Of a DNA stretch of 64,000 nucleotides, positions 2,516-46,462 are shown in pieces. The notes under the pieces were generated by a model that was given only the letters and a program-made list of their open reading frames with translations, was not told the origin of the DNA and searched no databases. Position 1 is the first letter of the stretch. Every line of letters starts with the position of its first letter. The position numbers and the translations under genes were made by a program. The stretch covers positions 1,013,607-1,077,606 of the forward strand of contig QPGO01000005.1 of NCBI GenBank assembly GCA_008632985.1. Direction: 5' to 3'. Source of the DNA: Psammoneis japonica. Lineage: Eukaryota.

Positions 2516-2642
2516 TGAAACGCGGGGCTCAATGCTTTCGCTAGATACAAAAAGTTGTCGCACAGCCGTAAATCGATATTCTTATCCTTTCTTACGTCTC
2601 CTCCCCAAACTGCAAGGCAAATCATTCTTAGTAATCACCCGC

Positions 2643-8251: not shown

Positions 8252-8539
8252 TATCTCCTAGTTTGCCAATGCTTGATATTGACGTACCGCTAAAGCCCTC
8301 ATCCATCACATGATAGAGATCATATGGTACGTAGACTAGTTGTAACAAGATCATTCGCTCGTGTCCGTCAACCGTCGCGGGGCGAACTCGAACCACTTAA
8401 TTATCGTTCCACAAGACGTTGGCACAGGACATACCCATTGCTGACTCTACAGAGTACTGTCATACCATGTCGTATCGACAAATTGGTGTGAGCTCCTCAA
8501 AGACACAGGCTGCTACCTAAAGTATTCTTTACTTTTACC

Positions 8540-10377
8540 AGCTGTTTGCAGACAATCAGGACACTCCAACACTTGTGGCAAGAACTGAAGGTGAACCTCA
8601 CACCAGATTGCAAAAGGTGTCAAGTGTCATTTTGTGCAACGCTGGAGTCTTGCTCTCTTTGTTGAGCAGCCTGTTGGAGGAGGCATGTTGACAAAAAGAA
8701 ATCAGCAGTCATCTTGAATTTGTGTCACTCCCAGAGCAGGCGCTCACAGCATGAATGGTGCATTTGATGCCTGCTTCCAGTGTCCTGCACATGGCTGATC
8801 CACACAAAGCATCCTTGGTGGTTTGTGCTTGACCAACTGGCTGGGATGAGAACAGCTGTGGCCACGGCTCTCTGTCACATCTCTCCCATGCCAACCAGAT
8901 GGATGCCCAGGTGTTTGTCTGATGCAATCATCTGCTTTTTGCTGTGAGTGCATGGCAGATGTCCCGCAGAGTGGCTTGTTTGCCTGCCAGTTTGTGGGCA
9001 TGCTCTGCACTTGACTTCTTCTCTGGGCAATCTGCTGGCCTTTCTGTGATGGAGAAGCCACTCTGAAGCTGTGCTGGCATCAGATCTGCCAAAGCCACCT
9101 GCACTCTCAGACAGTCTTTGTGTGACAGTCTCAATGGTGCTTTTGGCAATGATGACATCTTGGACCCCAGGTGGTTTGCTGAGCTTGTGAAAATCATCTT
9201 TTTCCAGCCAAACTTCTCAAACATGCTGTCTGTTTGCTTTGGTTTTCTCATCTGCATCATCCATGAGAGCACCCCAGCATCTTTTTGATGCTCAGAAATG
9301 TGCCTGACTGCTCCCTTGTTGGCTTTCCTCATGGCACCATTCCACCAAGCAAATGTTTTGGCATCTTCTCCCTCTGAGTGGACTTTTTGTTGCACTCAAG
9401 CAGCCGCTCCATTGACTGGGCAAGCATTTTGTGTTTGTCCATGCCCCAGTTGTTTGCACGCCTGTTGAACAAGGCCCTGATGTCCTTGGCTCCTTTTGCA
9501 TTGCAGTCCTGCCACAAAATCATTGCTGGCTGACACACTGCCAACCCACTCTGAGCTCTGCTTTTTTGCATCTCAGCCTGTGCAGCAACTCTGCCAATGT
9601 TGCAATGAAGCATTTCCCCATGGAGGCATTTGAAATGTTTTGTCATGGCAACAGCTTGAGCACTGGCTAGCATCAGCACCCTCGCACATCTTGCAAATGA
9701 TCCGCTCAGCTTGGTGTGACATTGGGGTCATCACATGATGGAAAAGTGACTCCATCTGAGCCTTTCCCACCCTTTGACTGCACTCCACCTTGTGAGGCAG
9801 TCTATCAACAACATCCTGACCATCTCTGCCCTCATCAGCATCATCATCTGTCACTTGCTTGGAGGCTGTTGGGGAAGTGGTGCTTTTCTGCTGGCTTTGG
9901 CATCAGCCTTGTCTTGTTTTTTTTTTTGTCAGCAGCATCAGGAGTGTTCTTGTTGATGAGCTGACAAATTTTCAGCTGCAACAGACCAGTTTCTGAGGAG
10001 GTTGGAAGTCTCTGTGCAGACTCTTGTTCAAACTGTTGGGCTGACAAGTCAGTGCCCTCACCAAAAGGGAGCTCCGTTGGGCTTGCGCTTCCTGTGCTGC
10101 TCCAAACACTTGCTTGGCAATCTCCAATGGCTGTAGATTGTCACAGCATCAATGAACTTGTGTGCAATGACAGGTGCCTGCTGATGCTGAGCGACACATC
10201 GTGCAAGCGCCAAATGACTCACTCCCCTCCAAGCTCCAAAGAGAGAAAGAAGATGGAAAACAAAAGTCTGGTGCCAAGAGAGTGATGACAGTGAAGAAGT
10301 TTTTCTCATGACGAGTCTCCCAGCAAGCCATGTCAGGGGCACAAAAGCGAAAAAAGGTTTGTGACCTCATTGTCATT
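8540..10377 (-). mobile_element. Unclassified degenerate repeat/pseudogene, depleted of both TpA and CpG
   Basis: Only ~3 TA in 1.8 kb by eye; broken minus-strand ORFs 10047-8928 with no Tyr; no family recognised. Confidence 0.45.
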
Positions 10378-10624
10378 CAGTCTTGGCACCAGAACCCCGG
10401 GGCTGAATCCCTGGTTTTTGAAAATGCGGGTTTGAACCCCAAAATGAAAACACGGGATTGAATCCCAGGTTTTTGTTCACGCAGCTCGCAGTGCTTTTTC
10501 TGCACAATTTTGCTGTTTCTTAGAACCCGATGTGACTTTGCTTCCCAGTTCTTGTGGAAAACAGATCACTTGATCCACTGTGTGGTTGCTGCTGCTTGCA
10601 ATGTTGGACAAAGAATTCAATGTT

Positions 10625-13377
10625 TTATGTGGTGTTGCTGCCCTGCTGTTCAATGAGACTTTTGATGTGATTTGCATTCTGTCTCTTCACCGCAATTGAT
10701 GGTGGTGTCCAATCAGTCTTGCGTTTGTTTGAAAACAGCTGAGTGTCTTCCCTGCCAAGCCCATGCAACAGCGCATCATGACAGTCAAGGAAACAGGTCT
10801 TCTTGCTGCTTGCACCTCGGTTGGCAGGGAAGTGCAATGGTTTCCCACACAGGTCGCAACTTGAGCACGAGTCCACCCCGCACCAAACACAGACCCTTGG
10901 ATGCTTGTGGCTGGTGGACACCGCATCAAAGTGACAACGCAAGTGCGGCGCACTGTGACACAGACGAGATTCATTTCCACCCTGCTGAGTGTGTTGGCAT
11001 TGTTCCAATGTCACAAAATTGCAAGTCATCATTGTTTGTTCTGAAGCCGCTCTTCGTTGATGGTTTTGTTGTGTTGCAACCCACATTGCAGAGTCACCAT
11101 GGCACAAACGTGCTTCAGGGTGACACTGCAGCATCTGTTTGAGAGTTGTTCTCAGAACTCCCAGCGACTCATTGGACTGTCGTCTTTCCAAGACAAGTCT
11201 AACCCACCCTCCGCCACTTCCAAATGCATGTCATGCGCAATGACGATGGCCATGGCCTTGCCGTGGTTCATGGCAGAATGCCAGCACTTCCAAGAGCAAT
11301 GGAACATCTTTGCATTTTTGATGCAATGATCCATTGAATCAATTCGTGAGCAAGTTGAAAGATGCAGATCATGGGCTTCATTCATCTTGATTGCCCAATG
11401 TTGCTTGCTCTCGTTTCTGCCTCTTTCCCGATGCCTCGCACATTTGTTACACTGGTTGAGGGCATTCACAGCAGCAATGTTGCACGACGAGGTTGATTGA
11501 AATGAGCAAAGCACACGTTGGCATCCCTCAGTGCTGCGTGTGGGTGCCACAGTCTTGACAGCAACAATCGGATGATTGAACCTTGCTGCTTTTGATCTTG
11601 CATCGGATGGTGTTTGTTTTTTCTGAAAGCACTTCCCTGGCACACCAGAAGGCAGCCGATCCCTTCGACGTGCAAATGCAGCCAAATGGCCATTTTCTCC
11701 AATCCAGTCTGAACTGCAGTCAGCATCAAAGCAGTTGTCACATGTCATGTGTGGCTTTCCTTGGAGTGTCTTCTTGGGTCTGGCATCATCACCCATTCTG
11801 CCAAAATCCACCATTTCGCCTGCTTGTTCCAAGATCACACGGATTTCCGTCGGGCCCATGGCACCCCATCCATCTGTCCTTGGGTGCAATTTGTGTCGGT
11901 GAACACAAGCCCGAGGTCGGATCCGGTGCACATCCGACAAGATCACTGTCTGACCACCCTTGGTGACGCCAGGCTTTCCAACTGTGCGACCGTCAATCCC
12001 GCTGCCAGCTTCACCATAACCAGCATGGCCCCAGGTGGTTTCGTCACCACAATGATCCAATTCTGCATGGTGTGTTGTCGCGTTGACATTGTGAACCATT
12101 GTCGCGTGTGTCATGTCATGCTTGTGGGCCGGGTTGCACCCAGCTTCTCCTCTTCTGGGGGATGTCATGTTGTTGCATGGCTTCAGCACTTGCTTCATTT
12201 GAAGCCAACGTGAATGACCAATTGACAAGGATGTGTCTGAGTCGCAGTCGGATCCATCAGCCATCCACCTGCGGTGAATGGCTCCGTCACTGCCACCCTT
12301 GACGCCATCTCGGACAATTGCTCCATCAAATCTGACAAGCTCATGGATGCTCACAAGTTTGAACTGGTGTCCATGCAAAGAGCACAGCTTCAACTCTCCT
12401 GCGGCGCACAAGTTTGAATGTGTTTCCACTTCGCTGCAGAATGACTTTCTGGGGTCTGAGTTGACACCCAACCGTGTGGTGCCACACATTGGCAGAATCA
12501 ATTGACAGAAAAACAAAGCATCCCAATTTTTCATCCACTCAGCTTTCATTCCCAATGATCGCAACACATCTGCGTCCAATGATCCTTTCCCAATGGCCGG
12601 AAATGGGTTGTCTTTTGATGCGCCCGATCCATTTGGCAGCGACAACATCAGATCTTTGTCATCATCAGCAACATCATCATTGGACATGGACCGATCCCAT
12701 CCCTGACAAAAGAACGCCGTCCATGGGAAATTCGTTTCCCTTCCAAATTCTCAGGTGCCGGTGCGGCGCCAGTTGGCAAGCTGTGATGAATGCACTCCTT
12801 CTCCCCTCTTGCCTCAAACTTGGGGCGGAATGTGTGTCTGCTCCACCCTCCGGGATTGTCCATGTCAGCAAACGGTGGCTCCCCCTTGTTTGCTTTTATT
12901 TCAGGCAGCTGCCACCCTTCAGGAGTGCCTGGAATGTTCAACTGTGCCGACGGGTCACGCTCACCATGGTGCAGCAGCAAGGCAGTGTGGTCGTTGTCAG
13001 CCACAGTCTGCTCGTCACTGTCTTGGTCCACAACATGCGAGATCTCAACCGTTCCAAATGGGCTTCAGCACGAGCTCCATCAATGTCATTGACATTCTCA
13101 TGCTCTTTGTCACTGTCACCACCATCTCCCGTCTCTGTCTCATCCTCAAGGACGTGCTCGGGGCTCACCAGTTGGTCCTCCATGGTTGCGGGACCAAAGT
13201 CTGTGGCCATCATGCACAGTGGCAGCCCTGGTTGTTGTGCTGCCATTCCACCAAACGCTTCATTGGCACTTTCAGAGGCGGCCATCTTCGTCACGACGTT
13301 GATGCTCCGATTCACTGAGCATGTTGCTTTGACGACAATGGCGGTGGCTGCGGTTGTTGGTTTTTTTTTGTAGTCAT
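10625..13377 (-). pseudogene. piggyBac-family DDD transposase, frameshifted and Tyr-eroded
   Basis: CGDETTW (1st D), TCDNCF (DN[YW]F), IDSMDH (3rd D region), SWKCWH, and C-terminal Cys-rich CVWC..CDLC...CFLDCH. Confidence 0.75.
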
Positions 13378-13584
13378 CGGCTTTTCAACATAGACAGGTA
13401 ACATTTCTGCAGTGCGGTGATGCGTCACTGCAAAAAACCCGGGATTCAGTCCCCGAACACCTGGGTTTCAAGCCCACTCTAACAACGACAACAAAATGCC
13501 AATGTAACTCCAACCACCAGACATGTGTTTGAAGGGCAAACAGTCATTGACATCCTGACTAAAACCTCTGAGTAATTGTCAATG

Positions 13585-14026
13585 GATTCGACAGTGTGCG
13601 ATGCCGATCTCACCCAGGACTAGCCCAAGGACTGCCTTGCCAAGAACCACTAAGAAGCAACTCGATGTTAGAGCACTTAGAAGTCTCACAGAGCAGAGTT
13701 TTTGGCAACACTCTGCTCCGCACTAGGGGGGTTGGGTAAACCCATGCCCTCCGCAGGGTCTCGAGTAAAACTCGAGGGCTCGATGATTGTTTCATCAGAC
13801 CACACTCCGGGCGCTTCCGAGCGAACGTAGTGGGGGGTGCCTTCGGCATATGCGACGTCGGTGCCCCGAACTAGCAGGATCTCAAACTTGGAATGGAAGA
13901 GAACGCCAGACGCCATTTGTTCGATTGCGCAGTTGGGCGTCGTCGAGAACATGGAACCGAAAGGAGCCGATCTAGACTTCAGCGATAGACTCCCACGGTC
14001 TTGTCGATGAAGGTGAGCACAAATCC
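13585..14026 (-). repeat. Split direct repeat B2 (3' terminus)
   Basis: Aligns end to end with 14282-14723. Confidence 0.95.
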
Positions 14027-14044
14027 AGGGAGTGGTGGGTGGGC

Positions 14045-14280
14045 AGCAAAAAACAGCTTTTCCAATGCTTTGGCATGGTCCAGTCACGTTGATCAGAGTT
14101 CCTGTCTCAACAAAGATGGAAAAGTGGGGAAATGGGATGCCGATGAGTTTGACCGGTCACAGAAACCGGTCATCTTGGCCCAGAGGTACCCTCCTCTGGA
14201 AGAGGCACATGTCGATGGACTGGCCAGATGAGAGGTCTTGCCTCGCACGGTTCGTCTCCATCTAAACTTGGGTGCGAAGA
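14045..14280 (-). repeat. Split direct repeat A2
   Basis: Aligns with 22907-23142, 5 differing sites. Confidence 0.95.
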
Positions 14281-14281
14281 T

Positions 14282-14723
14282 GATTTGACAGTGTGCGATG
14301 CCGATCTCACCCAGGACTAGCCCAAGGACTGCCTTGCAAGAACCACTGAGAAGTGACTCGACATTAGAGTGCTTAGAAGTCTCATAGAGTAGAGTTTTCA
14401 GCAACACTCTACTCCATGCTAGGGGGGTTGGGCAAACCCATGCCCTCCGCAGGGTCTCGAGCAAAACTCGAGGGCTCAATGATTGGTTCATCGGACCACA
14501 CTCCGGGCGCTTCCGAGCGAACGTAGTGGGGGGTGCCTTCGGCATTACGCGACGTCGGTGCCCCGAACTGGCAGGATCTCAAACTCGGAATGGAAGAGAA
14601 CGCCAGACGCCATTTGTTCGATTGCGCAGTTGGGCGTCGTCGAGAACATGGAACCGAAAGGAACCGATCTAGACTTTGGCGATAGACTCCCGCGGTCTTG
14701 TCGATGAAGGTGAGCACAAATCC
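14282..14723 (-). repeat. Split direct repeat B1
   Basis: Aligns with 13585-14026. Confidence 0.95.
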
Positions 14724-14806
14724 CCCCCGATGAGAACTCCCAGGTGGTGGCCACCACAGAGATTAGCTTGTGACAAACGCACCCTGAAGGCGCATCCGAG
14801 CTGGTT

Positions 14807-16310
14807 TCACATTTCATGAGTGCACCTTAAGAAGCAAGGGAGGAGGAGAGAGATGTCAGCGCAGTGTTGCCTCATCTTGTGAGTCGGCCTCATCCCTCCA
14901 GCTCGATCCTTCTTTTTCCACCGATTCACCATGTCAATGTCGTCCTCCGACACATTTCGAGCGATGGCTCTCAAATCCGACCCGCGTCGGAAGGACCTGC
15001 TCACATCGCACTTGTCCTCAATGTCCGAATGGGAGGTGATGTCTGCCCCAAAGAGGGAAGGGTGGTCGTCAAAAAGCTCCAACAGGGCGAGGTGAAGAAG
15101 CACATTTAGGTCATGAGTGGACAAGACCTTCCCAGTGTCATCCAATGTGGCTGGGCCTCGAGCTTGTCCTCTTGATGCCTGAAAGGTCACAACTGCCTGG
15201 ACCCACTGCCGGAGGCGAGCACCTGATCCCGTGACATTTGCACTGGAAGCAGGTGTTGGCGCTCCCCATGTTCTCCCTTGACTCGACCGAGAAGCGGAAT
15301 CACCACGCAGGATTGATGGAGAGGCAGGTGTTCTCACATGGCGCCCAAATCCACAAGTGAGCCTTCGGGGCCTCGGAGGGACAACGTGAAACTAGCCGCG
15401 AAGTGGAGGCCACCAGTCAAGCACCTGAGGCGATCCTCAGCTGCGGTGGCCCGGTTGAACTTCTCTTCGATCCGGGGCAAAAGATGTTGCATGATATGCG
15501 CCGAGATGGCCCTGTCTGGTCTCCAATCTTGGCCCACGCGCCTTTTGCAACCTGTCACAAACCTTTGGAACCAGAGGGAAGCGCAAGGGTCCTCGCAAAT
15601 GCGGAGATGTTGTTCACCCTCAAGGTCCGCAAGCGCCAAGGCTCGCCTGTTTGCAGAAGCCGAGGACCTCACCTGATTTGAGTGCGCAGTCCGCAGCTTC
15701 CCAACAGTGTCGAATTGAGTGTAGAAGTCAGAGCACTGACCCGGGGACGTCGAAGCCAAGACCATCTGCATCGCAACCTCACACCCACAGTGATCAAAGG
15801 GTGGCAGAGGTCCTGGCTCCAAGTGAGGACCTCGGAGCCCCAAACGCTCTGAGAGAGCTAAACCCCAGGCGACCTTGGACGCATTGTTCTCTGCCGTGGA
15901 GGTCTCCCTGCTCCAGAAAGCGTCCAGGTTAACCCGCCTGATGCAAGCCAAAGCCACCTGGTCACATGGTGAGGTAGAGAAGGGGTCTCTCCGGCACAAC
16001 TTGTGGAAGATGCACCCGTCGCACTCAAACACCACCATCAAATGGTCCCCGGTTCGCGCCCGTGTAAACTTGTCCTTGTCCTGCGGTTTCCGGAACCAGG
16101 TGTTGTCCTCGATCCGAGCGGCGTCCTCACCGGGAAGTTCCTCGCCGTTGTTTTGTTGGTCGGGCTGGAGGATCCCCCCCAGGTGGAACGTCACGTTTTT
16201 GCTTGAAGTGTGGCACCCGGGACACCACGCTTTTCGACACGCGGGCCAGCCCCCGACACTGTGAACAAAATTGACGCAGAAGATGCCCCTCGTCCACTTC
16301 AGCATCCTCC
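14807..16310 (-). pseudogene. Tyrosine recombinase of the YR retrotransposon (frameshifted)
   Basis: LSLRGPEG (catalytic R), SRSFRRGS (HxxR position), RW, MRQHC at the expected catalytic Tyr position; N-terminal CPGC and FECDGC. Confidence 0.8.
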
Positions 16311-19300
16311 ACACTCTGCGCAGCGCCCGGTCCATTGAGCACATTTTTGGGGTGCCTCGGAGCTGCCACGGACTGTGTGGGATGAAAGGAAAAGCAAGGC
16401 CTGTGAGCAGAGGTTCGAACATCTCACCGGGCCAGAAAGGCCCGGCCCCAGCCAGAACTCGAAACACCAAGTCGGCTGCCTTGTGCAATTGTTTTTGCCA
16501 CTCAGGGGTCATCAGGCGGGGACACACAAAGATGTGGAAAGAAGTCTGTCGCTTGAGTCGGGCAATCCGCAGTTCTTCGAGTGCATTCCTTGCTGCTGCC
16601 GGGGGCGGAGCCCAGACCCAGGTGCCAGAGCGAAAGGCAGGCACTTGAACTGCTTCGTAGGGTGGGCAGCACCACCCAGATGTGTCATGCCCTTTCTGAC
16701 ACCAATCAAGCGGGGAGAGTAGATTGGCTGTGGGAGATCCAGCCCAAGACTGAATCCACCCCAGGAGTGGAGGTGCTCGCTCAGTTGCCGGCAGGTGCAA
16801 GGGGACAAACGAGAGCATCTTGGCTCCATTCATCACCCCTTCCGAAAGGACCCCTCGAGAGACTCCGTCCGTGCCCTGGGCTGTCATGCGACTCCCCGAA
16901 ACATGAATCAAGTGGAACACAAACCCACACTTAGCCTCCAGGACTCTGAGCCGCACTGCTTGTTCCAGGAGTTTCGGGTTGGAAGAAGTTCCCTTGTAGA
17001 CGGCGATTTCCGAAACCGAATTGTCGGTGAAGAAATGCAACACAGCACGGTCGAGTTCCCCCACCTCGGCCAGTTCCTGGATGGAGTCCACTGTGTTGGT
17101 TAGTTCCTTCCAGTTTGACGAGTTCGACTGGTCGTCATCGCCCCAGACACCAATCCTGAAGACTGTCGCCCCGTCCTTCGTTTCTACTGAGGATCCAAGT
17201 CCCTCACCCGATGCGTTGGCAAACCCATGCAAGACCACCACGACCTTAGAGGACCTGATTACCCTGGTGGTTGGTTTTTCAGGTTCCAAGATCCACTGCA
17301 GAGCTTTCAGATCCGACAACAGACGCGGCACCACGCGAACGGACTCGGGGTGCCCCGCATCCTGGAGGGCCTCCCTGACTTTGTACGGTTCCATGCCGAG
17401 CTTGTCCGCTTCGTGCTGAATCCACACTGCATGTTCCTTGTCTGACATGGCCCATCCATTGGGCTTGCGGTTAGGTCGCCACCCATCCAGGGTCAAGTGG
17501 ATTCCTTTAAGGAATGGGGCAATGAAAGGGCAGGTCATGGCCGCGTGGACCAAATGTCCTCGTTTCCTCTCCAAATCCTTGAAATTGAACAGTGGGAGGG
17601 AGGAGGCGGCCAATGCGTCGCAGGGGCTCAATGGGTCTGTGATCATCGTCTTGCTCTTGTCCCACTTCGCTTGCGACAGGGATTGGGCAACGTCCCCATC
17701 CATTGCTCGAAAGATCGCTCCGGCCCAGGCCCCGGTTTCGTGCTGGGATGGCGGGCGCACCTTCCGGGCCGCGTTTTGGAGACCAAGACACTGGAGTCTC
17801 GAAGCCATTTGATGACCCACTTGCCAAGCCTCTTCTTCGCTCGATCCCATGCCCCGCAGATCATCGACGAAGGTCTTTATGTCGCCTGCGATGACCGCTT
17901 GACGGGAGTTCCACTTGACCACCAGGGGCTTCTTCACATCGTAATCGGGATCGCCCGGCAGATTGAATGGGATCTTGTCAAAGCCCATTGGGTTCCCCGG
18001 CCGTCCCGGGTCCCCCCGGGCCACCTCATCAGCCCAATGACAAGCGCGCACGGCCAGGTGAGGACTGGGTTTCATGCCCATGAATGAGCGGTTCCACCTC
18101 TCCAACCCCACAGGAGCCTGACCCGCCAAAGGTTTCGGCAAGTGGTCGCGAAGCGGGGTCAGGTCGATCCCGGCGTAAGGCCGAATGCGGGGGTCCACAA
18201 AGAAGTTGAGAAACACATCCCCCAGGTCCAAGTCAACAGAGAAGGTGGTTGGTGTCATGCAGCCGAGGACTGAGGATGCAGTCGGGAGGAAAAATGAAGG
18301 TGCCCACAGCGCGTCGTTTAGCCCCGACGAGGTGCCGTTGTAAACCATGCGAACATCTTCCACGACCTCTTCTATTCTTCCATCGCTTCTCAGCAGCAGA
18401 GACACCGCCTTGGGGACCCAAAAAAAAAAAACAGTTGGTGAGGCTGGACACTGGGCCCGCCTCAATGTAACCGTGATCCCGGACCTTCTGAAGTTTTGTT
18501 GCCATCCGCTGGATCTCATTGGACGTGCCGCGGATGCGTTGCCGCCGGCGATTCCGAGGGAGGGTGGTCTGGACGAAGATCGGAATGCCGTCACGGGCCC
18601 CCTCCCGCTGCTCGGGAGAGGGCCAGCCAGAAGAAAAGCGAGGACCCCCGGTCCCAACTCCACCAAGAACTCCCCAGAGCTTGAATCAAGACGTCAGCCC
18701 CCAAGTTGGCGTCCAACAAAAGGGAGGGGAGAGGTGGGTCCCAGTGCAAACCCCCCTGTAGACTCCCAACAGAGTCCCCAAACCGTCGACAAAGGTGTGC
18801 CAGGCGGGTCATCCACCCTGGGCCGTGACACCGATGCAGGAAACCCAATGGCGACCGGGTCAAGCGTCGCCGCCACCACCGGTGGGCCAGCCCGCGAAGG
18901 GCCGGAAGCACGGTTCAAACACAGGAAACAAGAGTGTGATGCGCTTGTCCCAAAGGCGATGAGGGGGGGCGACCGAATCCCCTTTTGCTGCCTTGGCGGC
19001 AATCAGGGACAAATCGATCCAGTCGTGCGACAAGTGCCGACCCAGGCGCGGCAACCATGCAGCCCGAGGACCAGATGCCGGAAGCTCAGGAGGCCGCGCA
19101 GGTGGGGCTGGCTGGACCTCCGGCGGCAACTCTGGGCTGGAGTGTTGTAAAATGAAACTGTCCGTCACCGCATGGAGGAGGTTTGACGGAACCATCTGAG
19201 TGAGGCCTTCACCCCCCAATCGGTCCCGAACAGCTTGAGACCGAAACCGAGTGGGAAAATCCCACCCTGCAAGGAGTTCATCTCCAGTGAAAGCACGAAG

Positions 19301-19523
19301 AGTCCACCCCGTGGGTGACCGGTGGGACTGGCAAAGAACCTTCGCCCCAAATGGTGGGGGTGCAGCAAATCGCACTCACGGCACACCGTTTCTCCCGGCT
19401 CTGATGGGCCAACCTGCCCCTCGCATTTGCAATCGATGATGTGGCCGATGGTCCGCCGCAACCCGTGATCGAGTTGTGGCAACGCGCCCCCGATGCAGCA
19501 GAACGTTGTTCGGAAAAGTCACG

Positions 19524-19970
19524 TGAAGTGTGCATGCAGACAAAAGGTCATTTTTGTCATGCCCTTTGTGACATTTAAAGGCTGTAACACGTCGCCGTGA
19601 TACATTGGCTCTTGTTGGCAGCTGCACATTGCACTCCTCCCCATGTGTCACGCGTCCACACGGCTCTTTACTAACGTGTGCTGACACTGCACGGTTTTGG
19701 CAGAACAGTGTGGGCACGTGCGAAGGAACACACAGAACTGCACAGAGTTTTACGCGTTCGACAGTGATCAACGTTGCTGCAGACAACTCCCACTCAGGGT
19801 TTCGAACCCCTGGCCTCCTGCCCAGTGGTTGCGATGTGCCACTCCGCTGTGAATTCACAACGAAGTGTGCATGCAGACAAAAGGTTGTTTTTGTCACGCC
19901 CTTTGTGACATTTAAAGGCTGTAACACGTCGCCGTGATGCATTGACTCTTGTTGGCAGCTGTGTGTTGCA
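19524..19970 (-). mobile_element. 447-bp non-autonomous mini-LTR element (TRIM-like)
   Basis: 110-bp direct repeats 19524-19633 and 19861-19970; TG...CA ends; 4-bp TSD CACG (19520-19523, 19971-19974); polypurine tract GGGGAGGAG (minus strand, 19634-19642) next to the 3' LTR. Confidence 0.85.
19790..19855 (-). promoter_or_regulatory. tRNA-like Pol III A-box/B-box cassette inside the TRIM
   Basis: Minus strand CAGCGGAGTGG (19849-19839; TAGCNNAGTGG if TA is restored), then GGTTCGAAACC (19808-19798) ~30 bp later within a CAGGG/CCCTG hairpin. Confidence 0.55.
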
Positions 19971-20419
19971 CACGCCTCCAACCGCCGAATGAGCAATGGC
20001 CGAATGAGGGAGATGCTGGAGCCCCTTCAACGCTCGTCTCGACGTCCCCCCGACCGGGACCATGCACATCGGGCACGTGGTCCCCACTCGCGAAACTCTT
20101 TCCAAAACACTGGGAGGGCCCGAAACCAGTGCCAAATCTGCGCTCTCCAATGCATGAGGCACCCCAGAGAAAGGGATCCGCTGAAGAGAAGCTCCGTCTT
20201 GCGACTCAAAAAGCGCAATGAGGACCGACTCCAAGGGAGACGGGTCAGAATCAATCGAGCAAAGGACAACTCAGGCCACTCAGCACAGCGGAGGGCCAAG
20301 AGCCAAATGGGGGGACCCCCAGAGATGACCAAGCATGTCCCGCGAAAAGCAAAGGATTTGCGGCCGTGAATGACGTGCCCCACATTTTCATTCACCTGTG
20401 GTGCGCCCCCCCCCTGGCC

Positions 20420-22889
20420 TCATTTCTTTGTCTCCAGAGCCTTCAGATGACGGTTCACCTCTTTCAGCTCCACTTTTAACTTGTTCACCTCTTGGTGTGC
20501 CGCATCGGCTTGTGCCTGCGCCAACTTCGCTTCCGTCCCCGCACTCTTGGCCTTGTCGGTGAGGGTCACAACCGCGGCCTGCAAAGCTGTCACCACTTCA
20601 AATCCCGAATTGGTCGCGAGGAACTTGACATGCTCAGACGCCATCGAGGGGTGGTCCTTGAAGTTGTGCGCTGTGCATTCGGCCATTGCGTCCTGGGACC
20701 TGAACACCGCCCAAAGAATTTGACTGCACACCGCATCGGGATCCGTCCCAGCGATCGAAGTGAAAACCCCCGACCGAACCTGGTTGAGGTCATCGAAGAT
20801 GCGGTGTGCGAGTTTCGACGTTAAAGACCAAGCCTGTTTCTGAGAAAACTTGCTCAACTGCACAAGATTTTCGCAGGTCTCGTCCATGAACTGCATCAGG
20901 GCCCGTGCGAATGCCACGGACTTGGCAGAGCGTCTCGAACAACCTGGCTCTCAAAAGAACCGCTCGGGATCCTCTGGGAGATGTCATTTAGTGTGTTGTG
21001 TTCGATCGTGACGATCTTCTCCATGACAAAGTGTTCAGTGCCAGTGGACCCAGTCGTCCAATGGTCATGGGATGACACCTTGTCCAGGAAAGAGGGGTGT
21101 GGCCCGGGTGACTGAGCTCCTTTCGCTGACCCCGAGTCAAGGATCCTCGGCATGCTGCATTGGAAACTGGCGAGAGTTCGCACATCCTCCTCCACACTGA
21201 TCTTCAAGTCCATCCGTTTGGACAACCCAGCAAGGAAGTAATGCAACGCGGCCGCCTCGGTGCCCGTAATTTGGTCCAACAACAAATTGGCATCCGCAAG
21301 ACAGCCATGCGCTCTGGAGGAAAAATGCTGGACCATCCAGGCCTCGCACTCTGAAAATGACGAAACGCCTGCACCCGAGAATTTGATGGCTGAAGATTCC
21401 GATTTGGACTTCAGCTCATTGACCGCTTGGCTGAGGTCTCGGATTTGACGATCGAGTGTCCCAGAGGGCGAGACACCCGCTCCACTCACCCCGCTGCCGA
21501 AGCTGGCGACTCCTCCACCCAACGTAGCGGCGATCTCCAACCTCTGCACTTTTGCCACTAGTTGGTTGCAGACTCTTAGGGTCCCCGCCCTCAGAGAGTC
21601 CAGGTCGCGTTTAGGAGTGAGGCTGGAGAGCTGGGCCTGGACCCTTTGAAGAGCTGCAGTAAAACTTGACGCCAACCTGTTGGACCCGGCCCGAGCGCTG
21701 CTTTCCAAGCGGGCCATTTCAGTAGAAAAATCCCGAGGTTGAGCCAAACTCAGTGTCGACAGGTTGGCGAGCGTCCCCCAGATAGTTGGGGCTTCCACTC
21801 GCTGGTCGAGCTCCGCCGGAGGGGTGCCAAGAGTGGCACTGAGCTGTTCCAACTTCCAACTCAGCACATCAAGCACCAAGTCCGAGTCTTTGAACCTGGA
21901 GTGGGCTTTGTTTCCCAAGTCGACCAGAACTTGTCCCGTCTCCGACAAGTTTTGTTCGACCGACTGCACCACACGAGCTGGGGCCGCCGGGCTCTTCTTT
22001 GCTGCAAGAAATTGGGACGGGGCAGTGGCAATCGCCCGTTGGCAAGGGGAGAAGTGGCCAAACTGTGACCCCGGAAACAAATCGCTCCCAGGATCCTTGG
22101 TTTTCACTGGGGTTTTGTAGGCCGCAGCCTCCTTGCACTGCTTGAGAGACTCGCCAAACTGGTCCTCCGTCGGGAAGCGCGACTCACTGTTTCCCAGAGC
22201 TGGGAACTTCTGACGCCACCCCGCCAAGGTGTCCAACGCTGACTCCCACTTGACCAACACATCAGCAGAGACAAATGAGCCGTCAAGAGTGGGTTGGCAG
22301 AAAGCTGCATCCGGCGTCTTCAAGATGGACACCATGCCGTTCGGAGGCACTTGTTTCTTGGATCCCTTGTGTTTCACTTTGCAATCCGAGGCTTTCTTGA
22401 AACAAAATGTCGCACCACTCCCAATTGCACCAAGGCACCAGGTGGCATCGGTGCCCTCCATCCAGACGACACGAAAACGAGGAGCATCAGACGAAGGAGA
22501 CGTGCCTTCCTCCTTTGACGTGAACGCCCCTCGAGTTGCTCCCTCATCTCCCGGAGCAAAAAAGTCCACGCGCAGTGCGTGGGCCTGCACTCCGTCGGCT
22601 CGCGAAAGAAGGACATCAAAAGCCGAATCCGGGTTGGGGGAGTTGACCTCCCCCAACTCCGCGAGCTCAATGTCCGAGTGCCCAGCGTCGGTCATTCCAA
22701 GGTCCAAGCCCCCAAGGGAGGGGTTTGGGCCCTCAGTGCCCCCTGATGACCCACCCCAGAGGGTGGGGCCCGAGAAGCGGGCGACGGAGGAGAACGCGAC
22801 GAGAACGGAGAGACAACATCTGACTTGAGAGTGCGGGCAATGTTGACGAAGGCCTCGTCATCGACGCCGGAAGCAAAGAAGTCAGACAT
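20420..22889 (-). pseudogene. gag-like ORF1 of the YR retrotransposon (frameshifted)
   Basis: First frame after repeat A1; WCLGAIG...FC.K...CKVKH putative Zn motif; HNFKDHPSMASEHVKFL followed by a coiled coil. Confidence 0.75.
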
Positions 22890-22906
22890 GTTCGAGCGAG
22901 AGAGGG

Positions 22907-23142
22907 AGCAAAAAACAGCTTTTCCAATGCTTTGGTGTGGTCCAGTCACATTGATCAGAGTTCCTGTCTCAACAAAGATGGAAAAGTGGGGAAACAGGAT
23001 GCCGATGAGTTTGACCGGTCACAGAAACCGGTCATCTTGGCCCAGAGGTACCCTCCTCTGGAAGAGGCACATGTCGATGGACTAGCCAGATGAGAGGTCT
23101 TGCCTCGCACGGTTCGTCTCCATCTAAACTTGGGTACGAAGA
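22907..23142 (-). repeat. Split direct repeat A1 (5' terminus)
   Basis: Aligns with 14045-14280. Confidence 0.95.
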
Positions 23143-27396: not shown

Positions 27397-29519
27397 AATG
27401 GGGGTAGTAGTATCAATAAAGATAGATTGGTATCAGAGTGTTTCAATGCAATCAAAACTTGAAATGTGTGACGGTGAGCGTGACGGTCGCTCGTTGTTGC
27501 GGTTTCAGGTTGGCCCATTCGTGAATGCGTAGAAACTGTACCAGAGAAGCCCGTAGAAAATCCGACGCAGTCTCTCACGATTTTCGAATTTCGCTGGATG
27601 TTGGCACGTTTGCATTCGGTTAGTCGTAGGCTTCTTGGTAGGAACAATCAGAGACCGAGACTGACGATGGATGTATTCATAATGAATATTATCTATTTTA
27701 GAGCCATTCTCTATAATGATATTCCGTGTTACTTCGACAGAGCCCATTGTACTTCTACGCTTCAAACATTCGAACGCACTTTACAACGGTCGTCAGTCAA
27801 AAAGTAGCCTGCAGCTTATCGTGCTTGCTCTGCGGCACGTCAGGCCTCAAATTTGTTGAACAACCCTCTTGACGAGAAATGGTGAGCTGATAAGACTGCC
27901 CACTCTCTGTCCCCAACATTGAGGAATAGCCTCGATCCGGCCCACAATGATGTCGGTTGTGATAAATTCGAACGCGTCAACTCCGTTCATATTGAAGGCT
28001 TGTTGCCGAGACTTGTACCCATTTCACCGTTTTCATCGTAGCCACAGCGCCAATGGAGCGTGCGGCGTGTATCAAAACAATATAAATTCACTTTTGAAAC
28101 AAACGAGCAAGGAGGATGCTTCAATACGCCCTAATCCCACCACGTACAATACTTGGCATGCCTTCCTCCGCATGAGCTTAACAATACTCACAGTAAATAA
28201 AACTACCATGCACCCAGGAATATTCAAAGAAGAGATGATCATATTGTGATAGTATTCGCTTGCACGAAACTCCAACCGGCCTCTAACTGGAGCGCAAGTG
28301 TCGGTTTCCGCCAGATGACCCATTGAGAATTCAAACAGCGCCACATTGATAGAATCACTTTTATCCATGCTCAAACTCAGCAAAGTCGGAATGATGAATC
28401 CAAAGGTATTAAGCTTCATTGTTTCAACAAGCTCGTATTGAACAAAGCCTAGTCAGTCAACTGATCTCTCCCTCCTATTGCAAATGGATGTGAAAAGCTC
28501 CCGGAGCAAGGCTAGAAGAACAAATCGAGTCCACACAGCGGCTGGGAAGAAAAAGGAGGTTGCGCCACGTGGTACAATGCAGAGAAGACTGCTCGTATTT
28601 TGTATGATAAATCGCCCTTGTATTGTCGGAAGTTGTAAGTTGTGACCAATAAATGGGGAGGCCGCCATTTCGTTCGGCAAGCAGTGCTCGTCGTACCGTA
28701 ATGTCAATCACACTGGAGCCCATGTCCCCTCTACCGTACTTGCGAAGCGGGGTCAGTCTCGAGACAACATGTTTTTGATATGATGATTTCACAGCATTCT
28801 CTTCTTCGTAAGCAACGGGTAGCAATCAAGGGTGTGATAGGTACCATTTGATAGCAGATAAAAAAATACAGACCCCTGTGCTGCTAAACTCCGGAAGCTA
28901 GCAAAGAATGGTTGGAGTTTTACCATCAATGGTACGAACGATCGAAAACTGGCGTCATATATCACATAACGTTCAGTGAGGAATTTGTCGGGATGAGTTT
29001 TTCAAAGAAAGAACAACAGCTTCCTCTTGCCACTGACTTGTCCATCCGTCTATCCGTCAGCACCTTGTACAATTACCTGCCATTCTCTGGCAACTTTGGT
29101 TGCGGAAGCTCCTCTGACGCAGCAACAATTGCGGCTCTTTGTACGCTTTTGACGACATTGTTGCGCGTTCGGGGCTCTGGAGAAGCCCAACGAATCATCA
29201 CGGAAACATCACTCAAAGACTTGGACGAGCTTGTGAGAAGGAGGCTCCCGACAAATGCAAGGGCAGGTCAAGAATCAGGGCCAACAGCAACTGGGTGGCA
29301 GCCATGTCCTTCAGCATGGGCGGGTGAAGCGGCGATGTGAGTGATGTGTACCACGGTTCAACGCAGCCACCGCCGCCCATCGCCGCAATCGAAATCGCGG
29401 TGAAAAAATGAGGATGACGTCGCGATTTTTGGCGGGAGGAATGTCCGTCCTTCGCCACTGTGCCGTCGGTCAATCCAGATTGCGCTGACAGAACATAGGA
29501 AAACGCCAAATGCTTTTAG

Positions 29520-32470: not shown

Positions 32471-32807
32471 TGTTGCAATCCCAGAAACATCTTGCCCGCA
32501 AGTACAACCCGACATGATGTTCGCCGTCGCCCTCGTCATCTTTTGGCTCACCGCACTCCCAAATAATGGGAGGTGCATGATGCACGGCATGCATGGTCTC
32601 GCCGGTCCGCATCTTTCTATACCAAAAATATAAGTGCCGAATAAATTGAATGATGCGGATCTTATGACGTGTCTTGCGAAGGTTGGATGCGTCGAAGATG
32701 TCACAGATCGACTCCTGGTCCATGGCGGATGGCGGCGGCGACTTCATCGTTTACAGTATCACGCTGATCGTCTATTGATTGGCATAGAAGTCTTCTAGCT
32801 GGTAAAG

Positions 32808-42000: not shown

Positions 42001-43097
42001 GCCATGTAGTGACATTTCGTGCGCACATGGCCATTATGCTTATATTGACCTTGACCATTAGCGCCTTTTACCCCGATCAGAATATCAACGGTGTAACGGC
42101 GGGAGACTACTCTGCTGTTTTTCCTTTGTTGGTGGTGTCGTGTTTTGTTTCTGTTATGGCTACGCGAGGTGCTGTCTTTTACAAGGAGCAGCGTTGCCGG
42201 GGTGACATTATGGCTGCCCCCGAAGTATTGTGTGAGCCTGGTAAAGAGGGCACGCCAATGGTGGTGGGTTACGGTGAATCCGTTGGCAGTGAGCAATCGG
42301 GAGACAACGACGAAGCTTTTAGCTATTATTCATCATCGCAGGACGAGAACAATCCTTCCTCACTCGTACGACCGTTAGATACACGACCCGGTGATTCGAT
42401 GCAGAGTTCTCCAGAACAGAAAGGAAGAGATCACCCGCTTACTCAAGATGACATTGAACGGGCATTTGCAAAAACGCAGGAGGAAGAGTTGGCCGCATCT
42501 AGGCAACGCTTGGAAGAAAGTAAAGAGCGCCGTCCTTCAAACGACATTCATTTGGACAGTTCGGATACGGAAGATCGAAAACTGCCGTCGCAACGCGAGA
42601 GTAGCGCAGATTTCGGCGAGGATGGGGACAAGCTTTCGGAGATCCTTTCGCGACCATTGGACAAACCCAAGAACAAGTCTATTGGTCGGCATCGTCGCGT
42701 CCGGTCGACCACAGACATTGATCCTTCTCTACCAGCACCGGTGTTCAAGGTACCGGGACACCGCCGCAGTGGAAGTATGAGCAGTACCGGCCGCCGCTCT
42801 CGTAGCAACTCCATGAGTAGCCGAAAGAGTGGTTCAGAAGAGCGATTGACTCGTGTTTCTAGTTTTGGTGAATTGAAGGAGTTTCATCCTTCTTTGTTCG
42901 ACGGAGCACGCCAACGAGCTGCATCTGTCAATCGCCCACCATCTCTTCCGAAAACGGGTCGGCATAGTCGAAAGAATTCAGAGTCCTCGACCTTTAGTGA
43001 TGTCGGAAGTATCTCTGGTGTGGCGTTGAGCAACGACGACATTGAGCGGTCCTCCATGGGACCTAGTAGTAGTCGGCGTGCACAAGACGCTGCGTGA
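39008..43097 (+). CDS. CLC-family chloride channel/transporter with long disordered termini, 2 exons
   Basis: GLSLGPELP (GxExP), AGFFGFPMAGALFVLE, GGHFWGPLFVG; intron 40613-40703 joins the two ORFs in frame. Confidence 0.85.
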
Positions 43098-43279
43098 CTA
43101 CATTAGACTATTTATAGTTTGGCGTATCGCGAGCGTTGACTGCTATCACATAACGTTATCTCTAAATTTGCTTTCTCGTGCGTGTTTATTCTCTAACTAG
43201 TCCCAGGAGGCTCGCAAATTTCGCATCTTTCTTTTCTACTCTCTAGAGAGCATGTAGCTAGCTGCTTCAAAATTGAGAT

Positions 43280-46350: not shown

Positions 46351-46462
46351 GTCTGTCCTACTAACTACTCGCTCAGTGACGTGTTGTTTCGTTTGCGCGC
46401 GTGAAAACGCGCACCTTGCGTGCACCGCTCACTTTTCTTTTTTTTGTTGTTGACTTGCCACC

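Follow-up and report, generated by a model that had tools for sequence, protein, structure and literature searches.

Transitions nearly confined to pyrimidine-purine dinucleotides in a Ngaro-like retrotransposon of the diatom Psammoneis japonica suggest in-place hypermutation at TA with slower CpG decay

The A and B repeats of a dead Ngaro-like retrotransposon in the diatom Psammoneis japonica have diverged almost exclusively by transitions located in pyrimidine-purine (YR) dinucleotides, and the dinucleotide TA is nearly absent from the element and from four other repeat blocks in its vicinity. These observations come from a window of 64,000 nucleotides (assembly GCA_008632985.1, contig QPGO01000005.1, forward strand), to which all coordinates below refer. 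They are probably explained by an in-place hypermutation targeted at TA, combined with a slower decay of CpG, both having affected the dead element together with other silenced repeats.

The whole element, a Ngaro-like tyrosine-recombinase retrotransposon of 9,559 bp, occupies 13584..23142 on the minus strand, as delimited by its repeat layout, an empty site and its GC content. On that strand the order is A - ORF1 - ORF2 - ORF3 - B - A - B, and the split direct repeats of the A1-[ORFs]-B1-A2-B2 type are found as A at 23142-22904, the ORFs, B at 14723-14282, A at 14280-14042 and B at 14026-13585. The empty site is provided by two contigs of run X1 that connect 13583 straight to 23143, two letters fitting either side, and the GC content of the element (0.56-0.59) is above that of its flanks (0.46-0.49). 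The repeat limits were set by self-BLAST and repeat finding, completed by alignment (global for B). The 3'-terminal copy B1 (13585..14026) and the internal copy B2 (14282..14723) are 93.2% identical over 443 columns; the internal copy A1 (14042..14280) and the 5'-terminal copy A2 (22904..23142) are 96.7% identical over 239 columns, all four lying on the minus strand.

The coding part is heavily decayed. The ORF3 remnant (14810..16320, minus strand) is now spread over two frames. Its alignment, its column counts and the fold of its relatives argue for a tyrosine recombinase rather than a DDE integrase: the model of the relatives' ORF3 (pLDDT 68) matches Cre (E 3.9e-5, TM 0.54 on target), XerH, lambda Int and Tn1549 Int, among 30 matches at E <= 1e-3, and the sequence of ORF3 gave no match in Pfam or among PDB sequences. 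The ORF2 remnant (16321..19339, minus strand) is broken into four frame segments (-1, -3, -1, -2; tblastn with 8 homologues), and every other copy of run X1 that covers 16308 (5 contigs) or 18910 (3 contigs) has one extra C at that place. It consists of an N-terminal domain followed by a reverse transcriptase with RNase H, as indicated by tblastn and by a model built for a relative's segment (pLDDT 83), which matches the reverse transcriptases of HERV-K, MMLV, CaMV and HIV-1 with E values of 7e-13 to 1e-10. The invariant DD lies within an FVDD motif in the window copy; Pfam RVT_1 stays below threshold on ORF2 (E 0.06-0.29) and PF00078 is present in one of 89 shorter homologues. The N-terminal domain, of about 500 aa, is conserved and has no family assignment, and Pfam searches with ORF2 of the window and of four relatives found no family. 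A methyltransferase domain is absent in Ngaro elements, which distinguishes them from DIRS1 and PAT. ORF1 (20896..22857, minus strand, 653 aa from stop to stop) can be called gag-like from its position, the relatives having an ORF1 of 756-807 aa in the same place; it has no Pfam match. Profile searches against PDB sequences with ORF2 and ORF3 returned nothing relevant, and tRNA and Rfam scans of 13000-23500 gave no match. The search among shorter proteins revealed no copy from the same genome, the best of its 89 matches being 63% identical.

The global alignment of B1 and B2 (441 aligned columns) contains 28 substitutions, of which 27 are transitions, and two one-base indels; the sole transversion is at 13790 (T/G). 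YR dinucleotides hold 26 of the 27 transitions, the exception being at 13966. They fall into three classes: TA versus TG/CA at seven sites (13652, 13689, 13694, 13715, 13737, 13766 and 13873), CA versus TG, with both bases changed, at six sites (13658-9, 13666-7, 13674-5, 13703-4, 13721-2 and 13980-1), and CG versus TG/CA at seven sites (13589, 13720, 13782, 13797, 13851, 13889 and 13995). A preliminary description, made by eye, had arrived at the same numbers for each class. It had also assigned all five differing sites of A1 and A2 to YR dinucleotides, and this is borne out by seven transition positions out of seven (14074-5, 14088, 14133-4, 14222 and 14274), to which a transversion at the repeat edge (14044) must be added. 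As a chance level, 44.8% of B positions fall in a YR dinucleotide. The binomial test of context bias called for by that description gave p = 2.8e-8 for the 25 of 26 transitions in the range 13591-14026 (the CG/TG site at 13589, outside this range, raises the count to 26 of 27), and p = 2.7e-6 when B was counted by site (19/20). The excess of transitions is itself extreme, 26 to 1 transversion in B against a 1:2 null (p = 7e-12). The restriction of the differences between repeat copies to a dinucleotide context is thus confirmed.

The TA state is kept now in one copy and now in the other, as had been noticed, with four sites in B1 and three in B2. The A and B repeats taken together contain nine TA-versus-TG/CA sites and eight CA-versus-TG sites, and the two strands are balanced, with five TA/TG and four TA/CA sites. 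No further preference for TAG/CTA was detected at the TA-versus-TG/CA sites (6/9 against a baseline of 0.51, p = 0.27). Covariation in a hairpin was considered separately as a sign of selection and rejected: the 13-bp stem at 13687-13722 pairs in both copies, but not beyond a null in which the same YR changes are relocated (P = 0.05-0.13 for the minimum free energy, 0.06-0.62 for compensatory pairs). The compensation is only apparent, since palindromic YR dinucleotides imitate compensatory change.

A fit to the class counts gives a hit probability per copy of about 0.55 for TA and about 0.08 for CG, with concordant values from two independent repeat pairs (0.53 and 0.59 for TA, 0.09 and 0.06 for CG). 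The per-site ratio of TA, CG and other changes, obtained by arithmetic from the fitted counts, is roughly 400 : 40 : 1. In B, eight TA are common to both copies. One homogeneous rate (p = 0.53) predicts about five; the rates therefore vary among sites. The preliminary description had rightly remarked that CA-versus-TG sites can derive from TA or from CG, and the model favours a TA origin for most of them, with log-likelihood gains of 10.95 in B and 4.61 in A, and of 4.72 and 1.45 in two further repeat pairs described below as D7 and D8, while a slower CG decay is also real.

These figures are best accommodated by the following scenario. After insertion, the resident DNA would have been struck by two context-specific transition processes. 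The faster one would convert TpA to TpG or CpA, that is A to G on either strand, with a probability of about 0.5-0.6 per TA per copy. A site hit in one copy would then be seen as TA versus TG/CA and a site hit in both copies on opposite strands as CA versus TG, and hits in both copies on the same strand would leave no difference to see. The slower process would convert CpG to TpG/CpA, at about 0.06-0.09 per copy, and may most simply correspond to the deamination of 5-methylcytosine in methylated transposon DNA; CpG methylation of transposons in diatoms is described in PMC9998398. The faster agent would most likely be an enzyme, a DNA adenine deaminase acting at 5'-TA-3', by analogy with the proposal made for Bigelowiella natans.

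Decay of methylated CpG alone offers a simpler account, in which CA-versus-TG sites are CG hit in both copies and TA-versus-TG/CA sites are background transitions. This process is real here, as the other copies of the element show below, the transposons of diatoms are CpG-methylated according to PMC9998398, and, the conserved half of B being dense in CpG, the variable zone may descend from a CpG-rich sequence. Taken alone it is nevertheless unlikely. About 80% of CpG would have to be hit per copy at the double sites, whereas 36 CpG, 28 of them in B and the other 8 in A, are unchanged in both copies; the log-likelihood is lower by 21.7 in total; and the single TA-class sites are about 20 times in excess of non-YR transitions (arithmetic from dinucleotide counts). 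It also leaves unexplained the near-disappearance of TA from the blocks and the loss of 16 of 20 tyrosines, which are considered in turn below.

The direction of change was determined from the ORF2 and ORF3 remnants of the very copy that bears the A and B repeats, tyrosine being encoded by TAY codons and histidine and cysteine by CAY and TGY. In ORF2, 38 of the 247 columns conserved at 80% or more differ in the window, many by non-transitions; the lineage is thus divergent, and residue-specific retention was used for this reason. The 20 columns with a tyrosine majority (11 in ORF2, 9 in ORF3) are now occupied by H (7 positions), C (5), Y (4), F (3) and W (1). A change from tyrosine to histidine or cysteine has occurred in 12 of these 20 columns, and the reverse in 1 of 23 histidine- or cysteine-majority columns (Fisher p = 1.1e-4). 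A recheck with 34 locus-derived homologues gave the same direction (Y kept in 3/14, H or C to Y in 0/8). Tyrosine is the least-kept residue, 4/20 against 64/94 for phenylalanine, lysine and asparagine (p = 1e-4), whose AT-rich codons lack TA and which served as control; all other residues are retained in 520 of 725 cases. The tyrosine fraction of the two long ORFs is 0.6% and 0.3%, compared with a median of 2.3% and a minimum of 1.35% in homologues. In ORF3 all nine tyrosine-majority positions are gone, including both tyrosines found in 8/8 relatives (columns 122 and 609), the one near the C-terminus being a cysteine in the window copy. Among 64 arginine-majority columns, three are now histidine and one glutamine, in the direction of a change from CG to TG/CA.

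The polarity of the coding part is therefore from TA to TG/CA, and the tyrosine columns, the composition and the class-count model together support the earlier reading of TA as the retained, ancestral state. The same state probably holds for the A and B sites themselves, which presumably were TA and changed after insertion. The opposite direction, against which the preliminary description had set its reading, would be that of a RIP-like cytosine deamination, C to T at CpA and CpG, with TA derived. Such a process would account for transitions confined to YR in repeated DNA, DNMT4, a relative of fungal RID, is reported in many diatoms (PMC9998398), and one unanimous row of run X1 does oppose TA in the window to CA in 7 contigs. 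RIP, however, raises TA and lowers GC, and the element departs from this in both respects, its TA standing at a mere 0.14 of expectation and its GC being raised; none of 47 glutamine or tryptophan columns has turned into a stop, histidine or cysteine to tyrosine is confined to the single column mentioned above, and a 348-bp coding tandem repeat, 91% identical, is untouched. We regard this alternative as extremely improbable. Even less credit can be given to selection in place of mutation, by which active elements would avoid UpA and CpG in their RNA in order to escape host nucleases. Both dinucleotides are known to be suppressed in RNA viruses and in cytoplasmic RNAs (PMC3829696), but the invariant tyrosines of the recombinase were lost in a frameshifted copy, differences exist between repeats belonging to one and the same insertion, and non-coding tandem repeats carry the same pattern.

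The composition of the window extends the signature beyond the repeats. In the element and the four other repeat blocks, TA is at 0.14 of expectation, compared with 0.63 elsewhere in the window. CG is at 0.61 inside and 1.00 outside, CA at 1.47 and 1.12, TG at 1.48 and 1.13, CA equalling TG within the blocks, and the remaining 12 dinucleotides are nearly alike on both sides. Counted per 500 bp, TA ranges from 0 to 8 inside and from 16 to 29 outside, with 15 and 9 in the two bins containing the B and A repeats, and steps are seen at about 8500 (27 to 5 per 500 bp) and at 23143. The first block (8501..13583), older, poor in TA and CG, is the insertion target of the element (TA 0.10, CG 0.46, CA 1.73 and TG 1.65 over 8501-14000). 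A second TA- and CG-poor block lies at 29001..32500 (TA 0.08, CG 0.30, CA 1.74, TG 1.69), followed by TA-poor blocks at 43001..46500 (TA 0.20, CG 0.67, CA 1.59, TG 1.51) and at 54501..58000 (TA 0.16, CG 0.59, CA 1.52, TG 1.51), the latter containing the D7 tandem pair. Pfam searches with 37 ORFs of the depleted blocks other than the element gave no credible family, with two weak matches far under threshold; 13 ORFs of the first block had no match.

In 69 related elements the median TA value is 0.62 and the minimum 0.40, compared with 0.14 for the element of the window. This interior value is lower than post-insertion loss from a family-typical start would give, so that part of the loss must be older than the insertion. 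The TA that survive favour the contexts CTAA, CTAG and TTAA. In the scenario retained above, both processes would have removed TA, and with age CG, from the four other blocks as well, stopping sharply at the block edges. Such a block-wise loss with sharp edges indicates that their target is silenced DNA, mobile or repeated, and not the whole genome.

Two more repeat pairs bear on when and where the changes arose. D7 consists of two 200-bp tandem units (56654..56980, plus strand; 56654-56780 compared with 56854-56980) with a difference pattern like that of A and B: 19 transitions and 1 transversion, 18 of the 19 transitions in YR, and six CA-versus-TG sites. D8, a direct repeat pair within the element (19525..19980; 19525-19643 and 19862-19980), resembles A and B more weakly, with 11 transitions and 2 transversions, 8 of the 11 transitions in YR, and three CA-versus-TG sites. 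The control coding tandem repeat at 36.1-36.8 kb, the 348-bp repeat already mentioned, has 18 transitions and 14 transversions, 7/18 of the transitions being in YR. As a second control, 11 pairs of related elements from metagenomes were compared, and 39-52% of transitions were in YR in the 8 pairs with at least 50 transitions. The YR pattern is neither a family trait nor generic divergence. That both strands are hit about equally and that the same pattern recurs in the unrelated tandem repeat at 56.6-57.0 kb point to changes in resident DNA. The strand balance and the D7 pattern thus support the initial view of independent hits sustained in place.

A contrary account would place the differences before insertion, either because the repeats are not homogenised at each cycle or because RNA or cDNA was edited by an ADAR-like or APOBEC-like activity. 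A single transcript could carry both B and both A copies, the Discussion of the B. natans preprint mentions a preference of ADAR-type enzymes for an edited A preceded by U, and two stem positions of the 13-bp hairpin change together. Editing of a single strand would nevertheless produce one direction, and the five TA/TG and four TA/CA sites do not show it. The pattern is shared by D7, outside any retroelement, and by blocks devoid of recognisable retroelement genes, and the hairpin covariation lies within its null over all four tests (P = 0.06 to 0.62). Moreover, A2 and B2 are given as identical repeats of A1 and B1 in PMC4157794. In most metagenome relatives the repeats are collapsed, either into a tandem dimer or into overlaps of 91-127 nt at the contig ends; in the three that have the repeat twice (L008, L015 and L054), identity between the copies is 100%, over 753, 672 and 456 bp, with the reserve that these are metagenome assemblies. 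An origin before insertion is therefore quite unlikely, and in-place hypermutation is retained.

Other copies of this multi-copy family were compared through 1,972 aligned contigs of run X1, polarity being read from 40 listed rows out of 2,155 variant rows; the high-copy segment 19659-19824 was left out, majority rule being unreliable under saturating mutation. Among the rows listed, none of which is on the A or B sites, 25 are inside the element with all other contigs unlike the window. Within these 25 unanimous rows, the other contigs have CG and the window TG or CA in 15 and the reverse is seen in 1, while the others have TA and the window CA or TG in 2, the reverse again occurring in 1 (18373, TA in the window and CA in the 7 contigs already cited). 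The change from CG to TG/CA is thus a real, second and slower process in this copy of the element.

The same comparison raises the question of an assembly or base-calling artefact, in which modified bases at the symmetric CG and TA sites of silenced DNA would be miscalled, 5mC becoming T and a modified A becoming G, with errors outlasting polishing in repeats alone. The window letter is missing from run X1 in all 25 rows listed, where the others mostly have CG, and run X1 contains 61% of the 31-mers of the element, so that this copy stands without independent confirmation by reads. At four places a C that is present in all or most of the other copies aligned there is missing from the window, and strand-dependent miscalls at palindromic sites would, on our reasoning, yield TG or CA at random. 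The host genes are intact all the same, with ORFs of 828, 826 and 1,797 aa, the sole in-frame stop of the Ca-ATPase falling in a GT-AG intron. A context common to B1 and B2 should lead to the same misreading in both. The TA and CG deficits vary by block (0.14/0.76, 0.10/0.46 and 0.08/0.30), as they would with age and unlike a fixed error rate. Misreading of a copy with family-typical TA would make unanimous TA rows far more numerous than CG rows, and the rows listed number 2 and 15; the same signature was moreover obtained from short reads in B. natans, according to the preprint. An artefact is for these reasons very unlikely.

In a more general perspective, the first report of a TpA-specific hypermutation in foreign DNA dates from April 2026 and concerns one alga and two viral insertions, and no report of TpA to TpG/CpA hypermutation was found for diatoms in the literature. 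The window carries the same footprint in a diatom, in another branch of the supergroup and in a major primary producer, where it affects a retrotransposon and other repeats and is far more advanced. If confirmed, a genome defence similar to RIP and opposite in direction would not be limited to one species. It can be tentatively suggested, at a little less than even chances, that diatoms, like B. natans, possess an enzymatic genome defence in which the adenine of 5'-TA-3' in silenced mobile DNA is deaminated in place, whichever strand it is on, at a rate hundreds-fold over background and about ten-fold over methyl-CpG decay, so that tyrosine codons and the stops TAA and TAG are erased. Such a system would be old and widespread in the SAR supergroup, its targets would be marked by their chromatin state, perhaps by the same 5mC that underlies the CG decay, and repeat pairs like A and B could serve as natural clocks. 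Several practical consequences can be drawn. With two of the three stop codons gone, hypermutated blocks fill up with long spurious ORFs (in 12.5 kb, 35 that run from stop to stop over at least 120 aa), and their proteins lose tyrosine and score under Pfam thresholds. Insertion dating by repeat divergence overestimates age many-fold unless YR sites are left out. The A and B pairs provide an internal gauge, for each insertion, of the relative rates of TA loss, CG loss and background change.

Among known systems, the element itself compares with the Ngaro elements (order DIRS) described for Cafeteria burkhardae (PMC8547959), with which it shares split direct repeats, RT/RNase H, a tyrosine recombinase and a GC content above that of the host. 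It differs by its length (9.6 kb, theirs being roughly 6-7 kb), by the N-terminal domain of about 500 aa, of no assigned family, in ORF2, and by the fact that none of its three ORFs reaches a Pfam threshold.

Among mutational processes, 5-methylcytosine deamination fits the CG-versus-TG/CA class, its 15:1 polarity among the rows listed and the CG deficit of the blocks, but it can neither remove TA and tyrosine codons nor make eight CA-versus-TG sites beside 36 intact CpG. In Escherichia coli, very-short-patch repair of T:G mismatches is biased towards C:G and converts CTAG to CCAG or CTGG, making CTAG scarce. CTAG is likewise opposed to CTGG at two sites here (13873 and 14222), but it is among the least depleted contexts, and there is no sign of such repair. 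ADAR/APOBEC editing in animals also produces deaminase-type transitions clustered in mobile elements; it acts on RNA or single-stranded cDNA and marks one strand, whereas both strands and repeats other than retroelements are affected here. The RIP of fungi has in common an in-place transition mutagenesis of repeated and mobile DNA, a dinucleotide context and the inactivation of elements. It makes TpA from CpA and lowers GC, however, whereas here TpA is destroyed and GC rises, and duplication alone is not sufficient, since the coding tandem repeat is spared.

The closest counterpart is the TpA to TpG/CpA hypermutation of B. natans (Mettrop et al., bioRxiv 2026, doi 10.64898/2026.01.13.699255). 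In the mutation-accumulation lines of this alga, two integrated viral regions acquired 231 mutations, 230 of them A to G/T to C changes according to the preprint, the AT to GC changes being all on TpA, at about 6e-7 versus 3.5e-10 per site per generation. The host is a chlorarachniophyte (Rhizaria) there and a diatom (Stramenopiles) here; the targets are giant-virus and virophage insertions in one case, a tyrosine-recombinase retrotransposon and repeats of no credible family in the other; and the evidence consists of new mutations observed in B. natans, of repeat pairs, codons and composition here. The signature described for B. natans does not include the slower CpG decay: specificity for TA alone is not seen in the window, where CG is also down (0.61 vs 1.00), which is read as the second process. 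The depletion is deeper here, with TA at 0.04-0.2 in 2-kb bins of the blocks and 0.45 in the NCLDV region of B. natans. The footprint thresholds of the preprint (Rho TpA of at most 0.43 together with a Rho of at least 1.52 for CpA+TpG in window runs) are passed in the four non-element blocks, and the Ngaro interior passes the one for TA alone (TA 0.11-0.16, CA/TG 1.24-1.55), CA/TG within the element (1.2-1.5) being mostly under 1.52. As far as the preprint describes them, the two systems have in common transitions in a YR/TpA context on both strands, a long-term depletion of TpA with a gain of CpA+TpG, and many affected ORFs devoid of annotation, the affected clusters of B. natans including reverse-transcriptase and transposase genes. 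They also share a confinement to blocks of foreign or silent DNA with the neighbouring genes spared, the genic remainder of the window keeping its TA at 0.63.

In the mobile element at 13584-23142 (minus strand), the differences between repeat copies are confined almost entirely to pyrimidine-purine (YR) dinucleotides. Repeat finding and self-BLAST delimit two pairs of direct repeats, B (B1, 13585-14026; B2, 14282-14723; 93.2% identity over 443 columns) and A (A1, 14042-14280; A2, 22904-23142; 96.7% over 239 columns). The alignment of B1 with B2 (441 columns) contains 28 substitutions, of which 27 are transitions and one a transversion, and 2 one-base indels. By class, 7 sites are TA-vs-TG/CA, 6 are CA-vs-TG and 7 are CG-vs-TG/CA, a single transition falling outside YR; the 5 sites separating A1 from A2 are all of YR class, with one further transversion at the edge. 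The preliminary description had reported these counts by eye, and the alignment reproduces them; the TA state, said there to be kept now in one B copy and now in the other, is held by B1 at four sites and by B2 at three. The context bias is borne out as well, since YR dinucleotides cover 44.8% of positions and receive 25 of 26 transitions (p = 2.8e-8). An apparent compensatory hairpin fell within a YR-aware null.

This pattern is special. The internal control, a coding tandem repeat whose units diverge with an ordinary spectrum, shows 18 transitions, 7 of them in YR, and 14 transversions. Among 11 metagenome pairs of related elements, the transition:transversion ratio is 0.3-2.7, and the eight pairs with at least 50 transitions have 39-52% of them in YR and few CA-vs-TG sites. 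At 56.65-56.98 kb, a tandem repeat of 200-bp units displays 19 transitions, 18 of them in YR, 1 transversion and six CA-vs-TG sites, and a further repeat pair within the element follows the A/B pattern more weakly. Each unit of the 200-bp repeat opens with a poly-C tract (56654-56670 and 56850-56866; 12 and 17 bases). The control repeat lies in an open frame of 1,797 aa (32799-38192) with six tandem units of 348-387 bp that are 60-93% identical; A strongly outnumbers T along the frame (skew 0.23-0.31), which matches no Pfam family.

The element carries three gene remnants on its minus strand, ORF1 to ORF3, none with a Pfam family above threshold. Database homologues number in the hundreds at 40-50% identity, the named hosts being the diatoms Cylindrotheca, Epithemia and Attheya, and the three-ORF set recurs in intact metagenome relatives. 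The central part of ORF2, modelled at pLDDT 83, has its fold matches among reverse transcriptases of retroviral type that carry RNase H (HERV-K, MMLV, CaMV, HIV-1; E 7e-13 to 1e-10), and the modelled ORF3 (pLDDT 68) has them in Cre, XerH and lambda integrase (best E 3.9e-5). These modelled folds, together with the three-ORF set, identify the element as an Ngaro-like tyrosine-recombinase retrotransposon. The repeat order, B-A-B ... A on the plus strand and A-[ORFs]-B-A-B on the minus strand, agrees in the latter orientation with the split-direct-repeat layout outlined for Ngaro in PMC8547959 and PMC4157794. The window copy is dead: ORF2 is broken into four frame segments, and at four places one extra C is present in all or most other copies aligned there from a public sequencing run (X1). 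A conserved N-terminal domain of ~500 aa (residues ~1-500; window 18407-19339; homologues P0003, P0005, P0013 and others) precedes the reverse transcriptase in all ORF2 relatives. It has no Pfam family, shows near-invariant H..VGG.T and R.LT..E...DLP motifs plus a W-rich stretch, and is relevant to the presence or absence of a methyltransferase-like domain in the family. Metagenome contigs of five relatives (L011, L014, L023, L028, L036) have exact terminal overlaps of 101-127 nt, and another, L079, contains an 8.1-kb tandem dimer (357-16589; 99.98% identity); these reflect either split direct repeats collapsed into a circular assembly path or real tandem or circular forms.

Two contigs of run X1 join 13583 directly to 23143, and this empty site bounds the insertion at 9,559 bp. 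A second joint, 13573 to 23178, can be observed beside it. A 13-nt core, GGGRYTGAATCCC, occurs within short palindromes at four places (5 matches over both strands, 0.2 expected), located at 10399-10466, 13441-13453 (minus) and 23190-23202 (plus). Two cores, inverted relative to each other, flank the insertion at ~130 bp on the left and ~48 bp on the right, and probably belong to an older host element around it, itself repeated, as shown by a summed X1 depth of ~400-700 in both end bins, flanks included, and by the second joint. Inside the retrotransposon, the X1 contigs reach a summed depth of 22,000-100,000 at 19312-19979, against 150-400 in the remainder. This segment contains the direct repeat pair of 119 nt and a T-arm-like motif, gives no match from ARAGORN or Rfam, and may represent a short repeat of very high copy number that the element captured or that was inserted into it; the frequent variants of the segment are again TA/CA, TA/TG, CG/CA and CA/TG.

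Dinucleotide profiles place the element among several sharply bounded blocks (8.5-23.1, 29-32.5, 43-46.5 and 54.5-58 kb). Relative to expectation, TA stands at 0.14 inside the blocks and 0.63 outside, CG at 0.61 and 1.00, and CA/TG at 1.47-1.48 and 1.12-1.13; the remaining twelve dinucleotides are nearly alike. TA per 500 bp drops from 16-29 to 0-8 at ~8500 and recovers at 23143, the element end, the bins with B and A repeats being intermediate (15 and 9). The deficit is not a family trait, since TA ranges over 0.40-0.71 (median 0.62) in the 69 related elements of at least 4 kb among 80 loci fetched. Surviving TA sites favor CTAA, CTAG and TTAA contexts, ATAT and ATAC being almost gone; rates differ among TA sites, and some TA loss in the element interior is probably older than this insertion. 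Because TA loss removes TAA and TAG stops, long open frames crowd both strands of the blocks and form a trap for gene callers; the 12.5 kb of 12000-24500 hold 35 stop-to-stop ORFs of at least 120 aa. One frame of 1,119 aa continues past the frameshift from ORF2 into ORF3, and another of 532 aa (11155-12750) has no family.

Whether TA is ancestral or derived, a question raised in the preliminary description, was addressed by four lines of evidence. Tyrosine is the sole amino acid with TA in its codons. At 20 columns where relatives have a Tyr majority (11 in ORF2, 9 in ORF3), the window copy reads Tyr 4, His 7, Cys 5, Trp 1 and Phe 3 times, against Tyr at one of 23 His/Cys-majority columns (Fisher p = 1.1e-4). 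Both ORF3 columns with Tyr in 8/8 relatives have lost it, one near the C-terminus, presumably in the region holding the catalytic tyrosine of recombinases. Retention is lowest for Tyr (4/20, versus 64/94 for Phe, Lys and Asn together and 520/725 for all others), which excludes an overall drift from AT to GC; none of the Gln or Trp columns was turned into a stop. A RIP-like direction, with TA derived, is contradicted by both composition and codons.

A two-class model, in which none, one or both copies are hit at each site, fits far better when CA-vs-TG sites derive from TA (delta logL 10.95 for B, 4.61 for A, 4.72 and 1.45 for the two other repeat pairs). The independent pairs B and A give per-copy hit probabilities of 0.53 and 0.59 for TA, and of 0.09 and 0.06 for CG. 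CpG decay alone is an unlikely account: it offers no route to the loss of TA or tyrosine, and would need ~80% of CpG to be hit at double sites next to 36 untouched CpG. At the 25 listed element positions where all other X1 contigs oppose the window, CG elsewhere faces TG/CA here 15 times (reverse 1) and TA elsewhere faces CA/TG here twice (reverse 1), unanimity being biased to slow processes, since under a fast one the other copies would disagree among themselves. Both strands are equally hit (5 TA/TG against 4 TA/CA sites in A and B; CA equals TG in blocks), which argues against editing of RNA or single-stranded cDNA. The same balance argues against differences already present at insertion, as do the recurrence of the pattern in a repeat outside any retroelement and the lack of differences between repeat copies in three relatives, although these are metagenome assemblies. 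The four lines, all indirect for the repeat sites, support the initial interpretation of an ancestral TA changed in place. An assembly artefact at modified bases would explain why window letters are missing from run X1 at the listed positions and why just 61% of 31-mers are shared with it; this is nevertheless very improbable, given that host genes are intact, that TA and CG deficits vary independently from block to block, and that few TA cases are among the positions listed.

The host is a diatom; the calcium ATPase encoded in the window shows 67-68% identity to the Nitzschia and Pseudo-nitzschia enzymes. This gene is not a pseudogene; its single short GT-AG intron (51598-51686) is by chance in frame and contains TGA.

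The simplest reading of the repeat differences is two in-place transition processes in silenced mobile DNA, a fast one converting TpA to TpG/CpA and a slower decay of CpG to TpG/CpA. The latter would follow from the methylation of diatom transposons at CpG, described in PMC9998398. Literature searches returned no report of the former in diatoms. In Bigelowiella natans, a preprint of April 2026 (10.64898/2026.01.13.699255) describes two integrated viral regions in which 230 of 231 new mutations were A->G/T->C, all AT->GC changes there falling on TpA, at ~6e-7 per site per generation versus 3.5e-10 elsewhere. TpA-depleted coding sequences of this organism are enriched in reverse-transcriptase and transposase domains, and the agent proposed by its authors is an ADAT2-like DNA adenine deaminase. 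The thresholds given in that preprint are passed by four of five blocks in the window, the Ngaro interior passing only the TpA threshold. Such hypermutation is known so far from this one preprint; its context matches the fast process proposed here, and what is new is the diatom host, the retrotransposon target and the CpG decay alongside.
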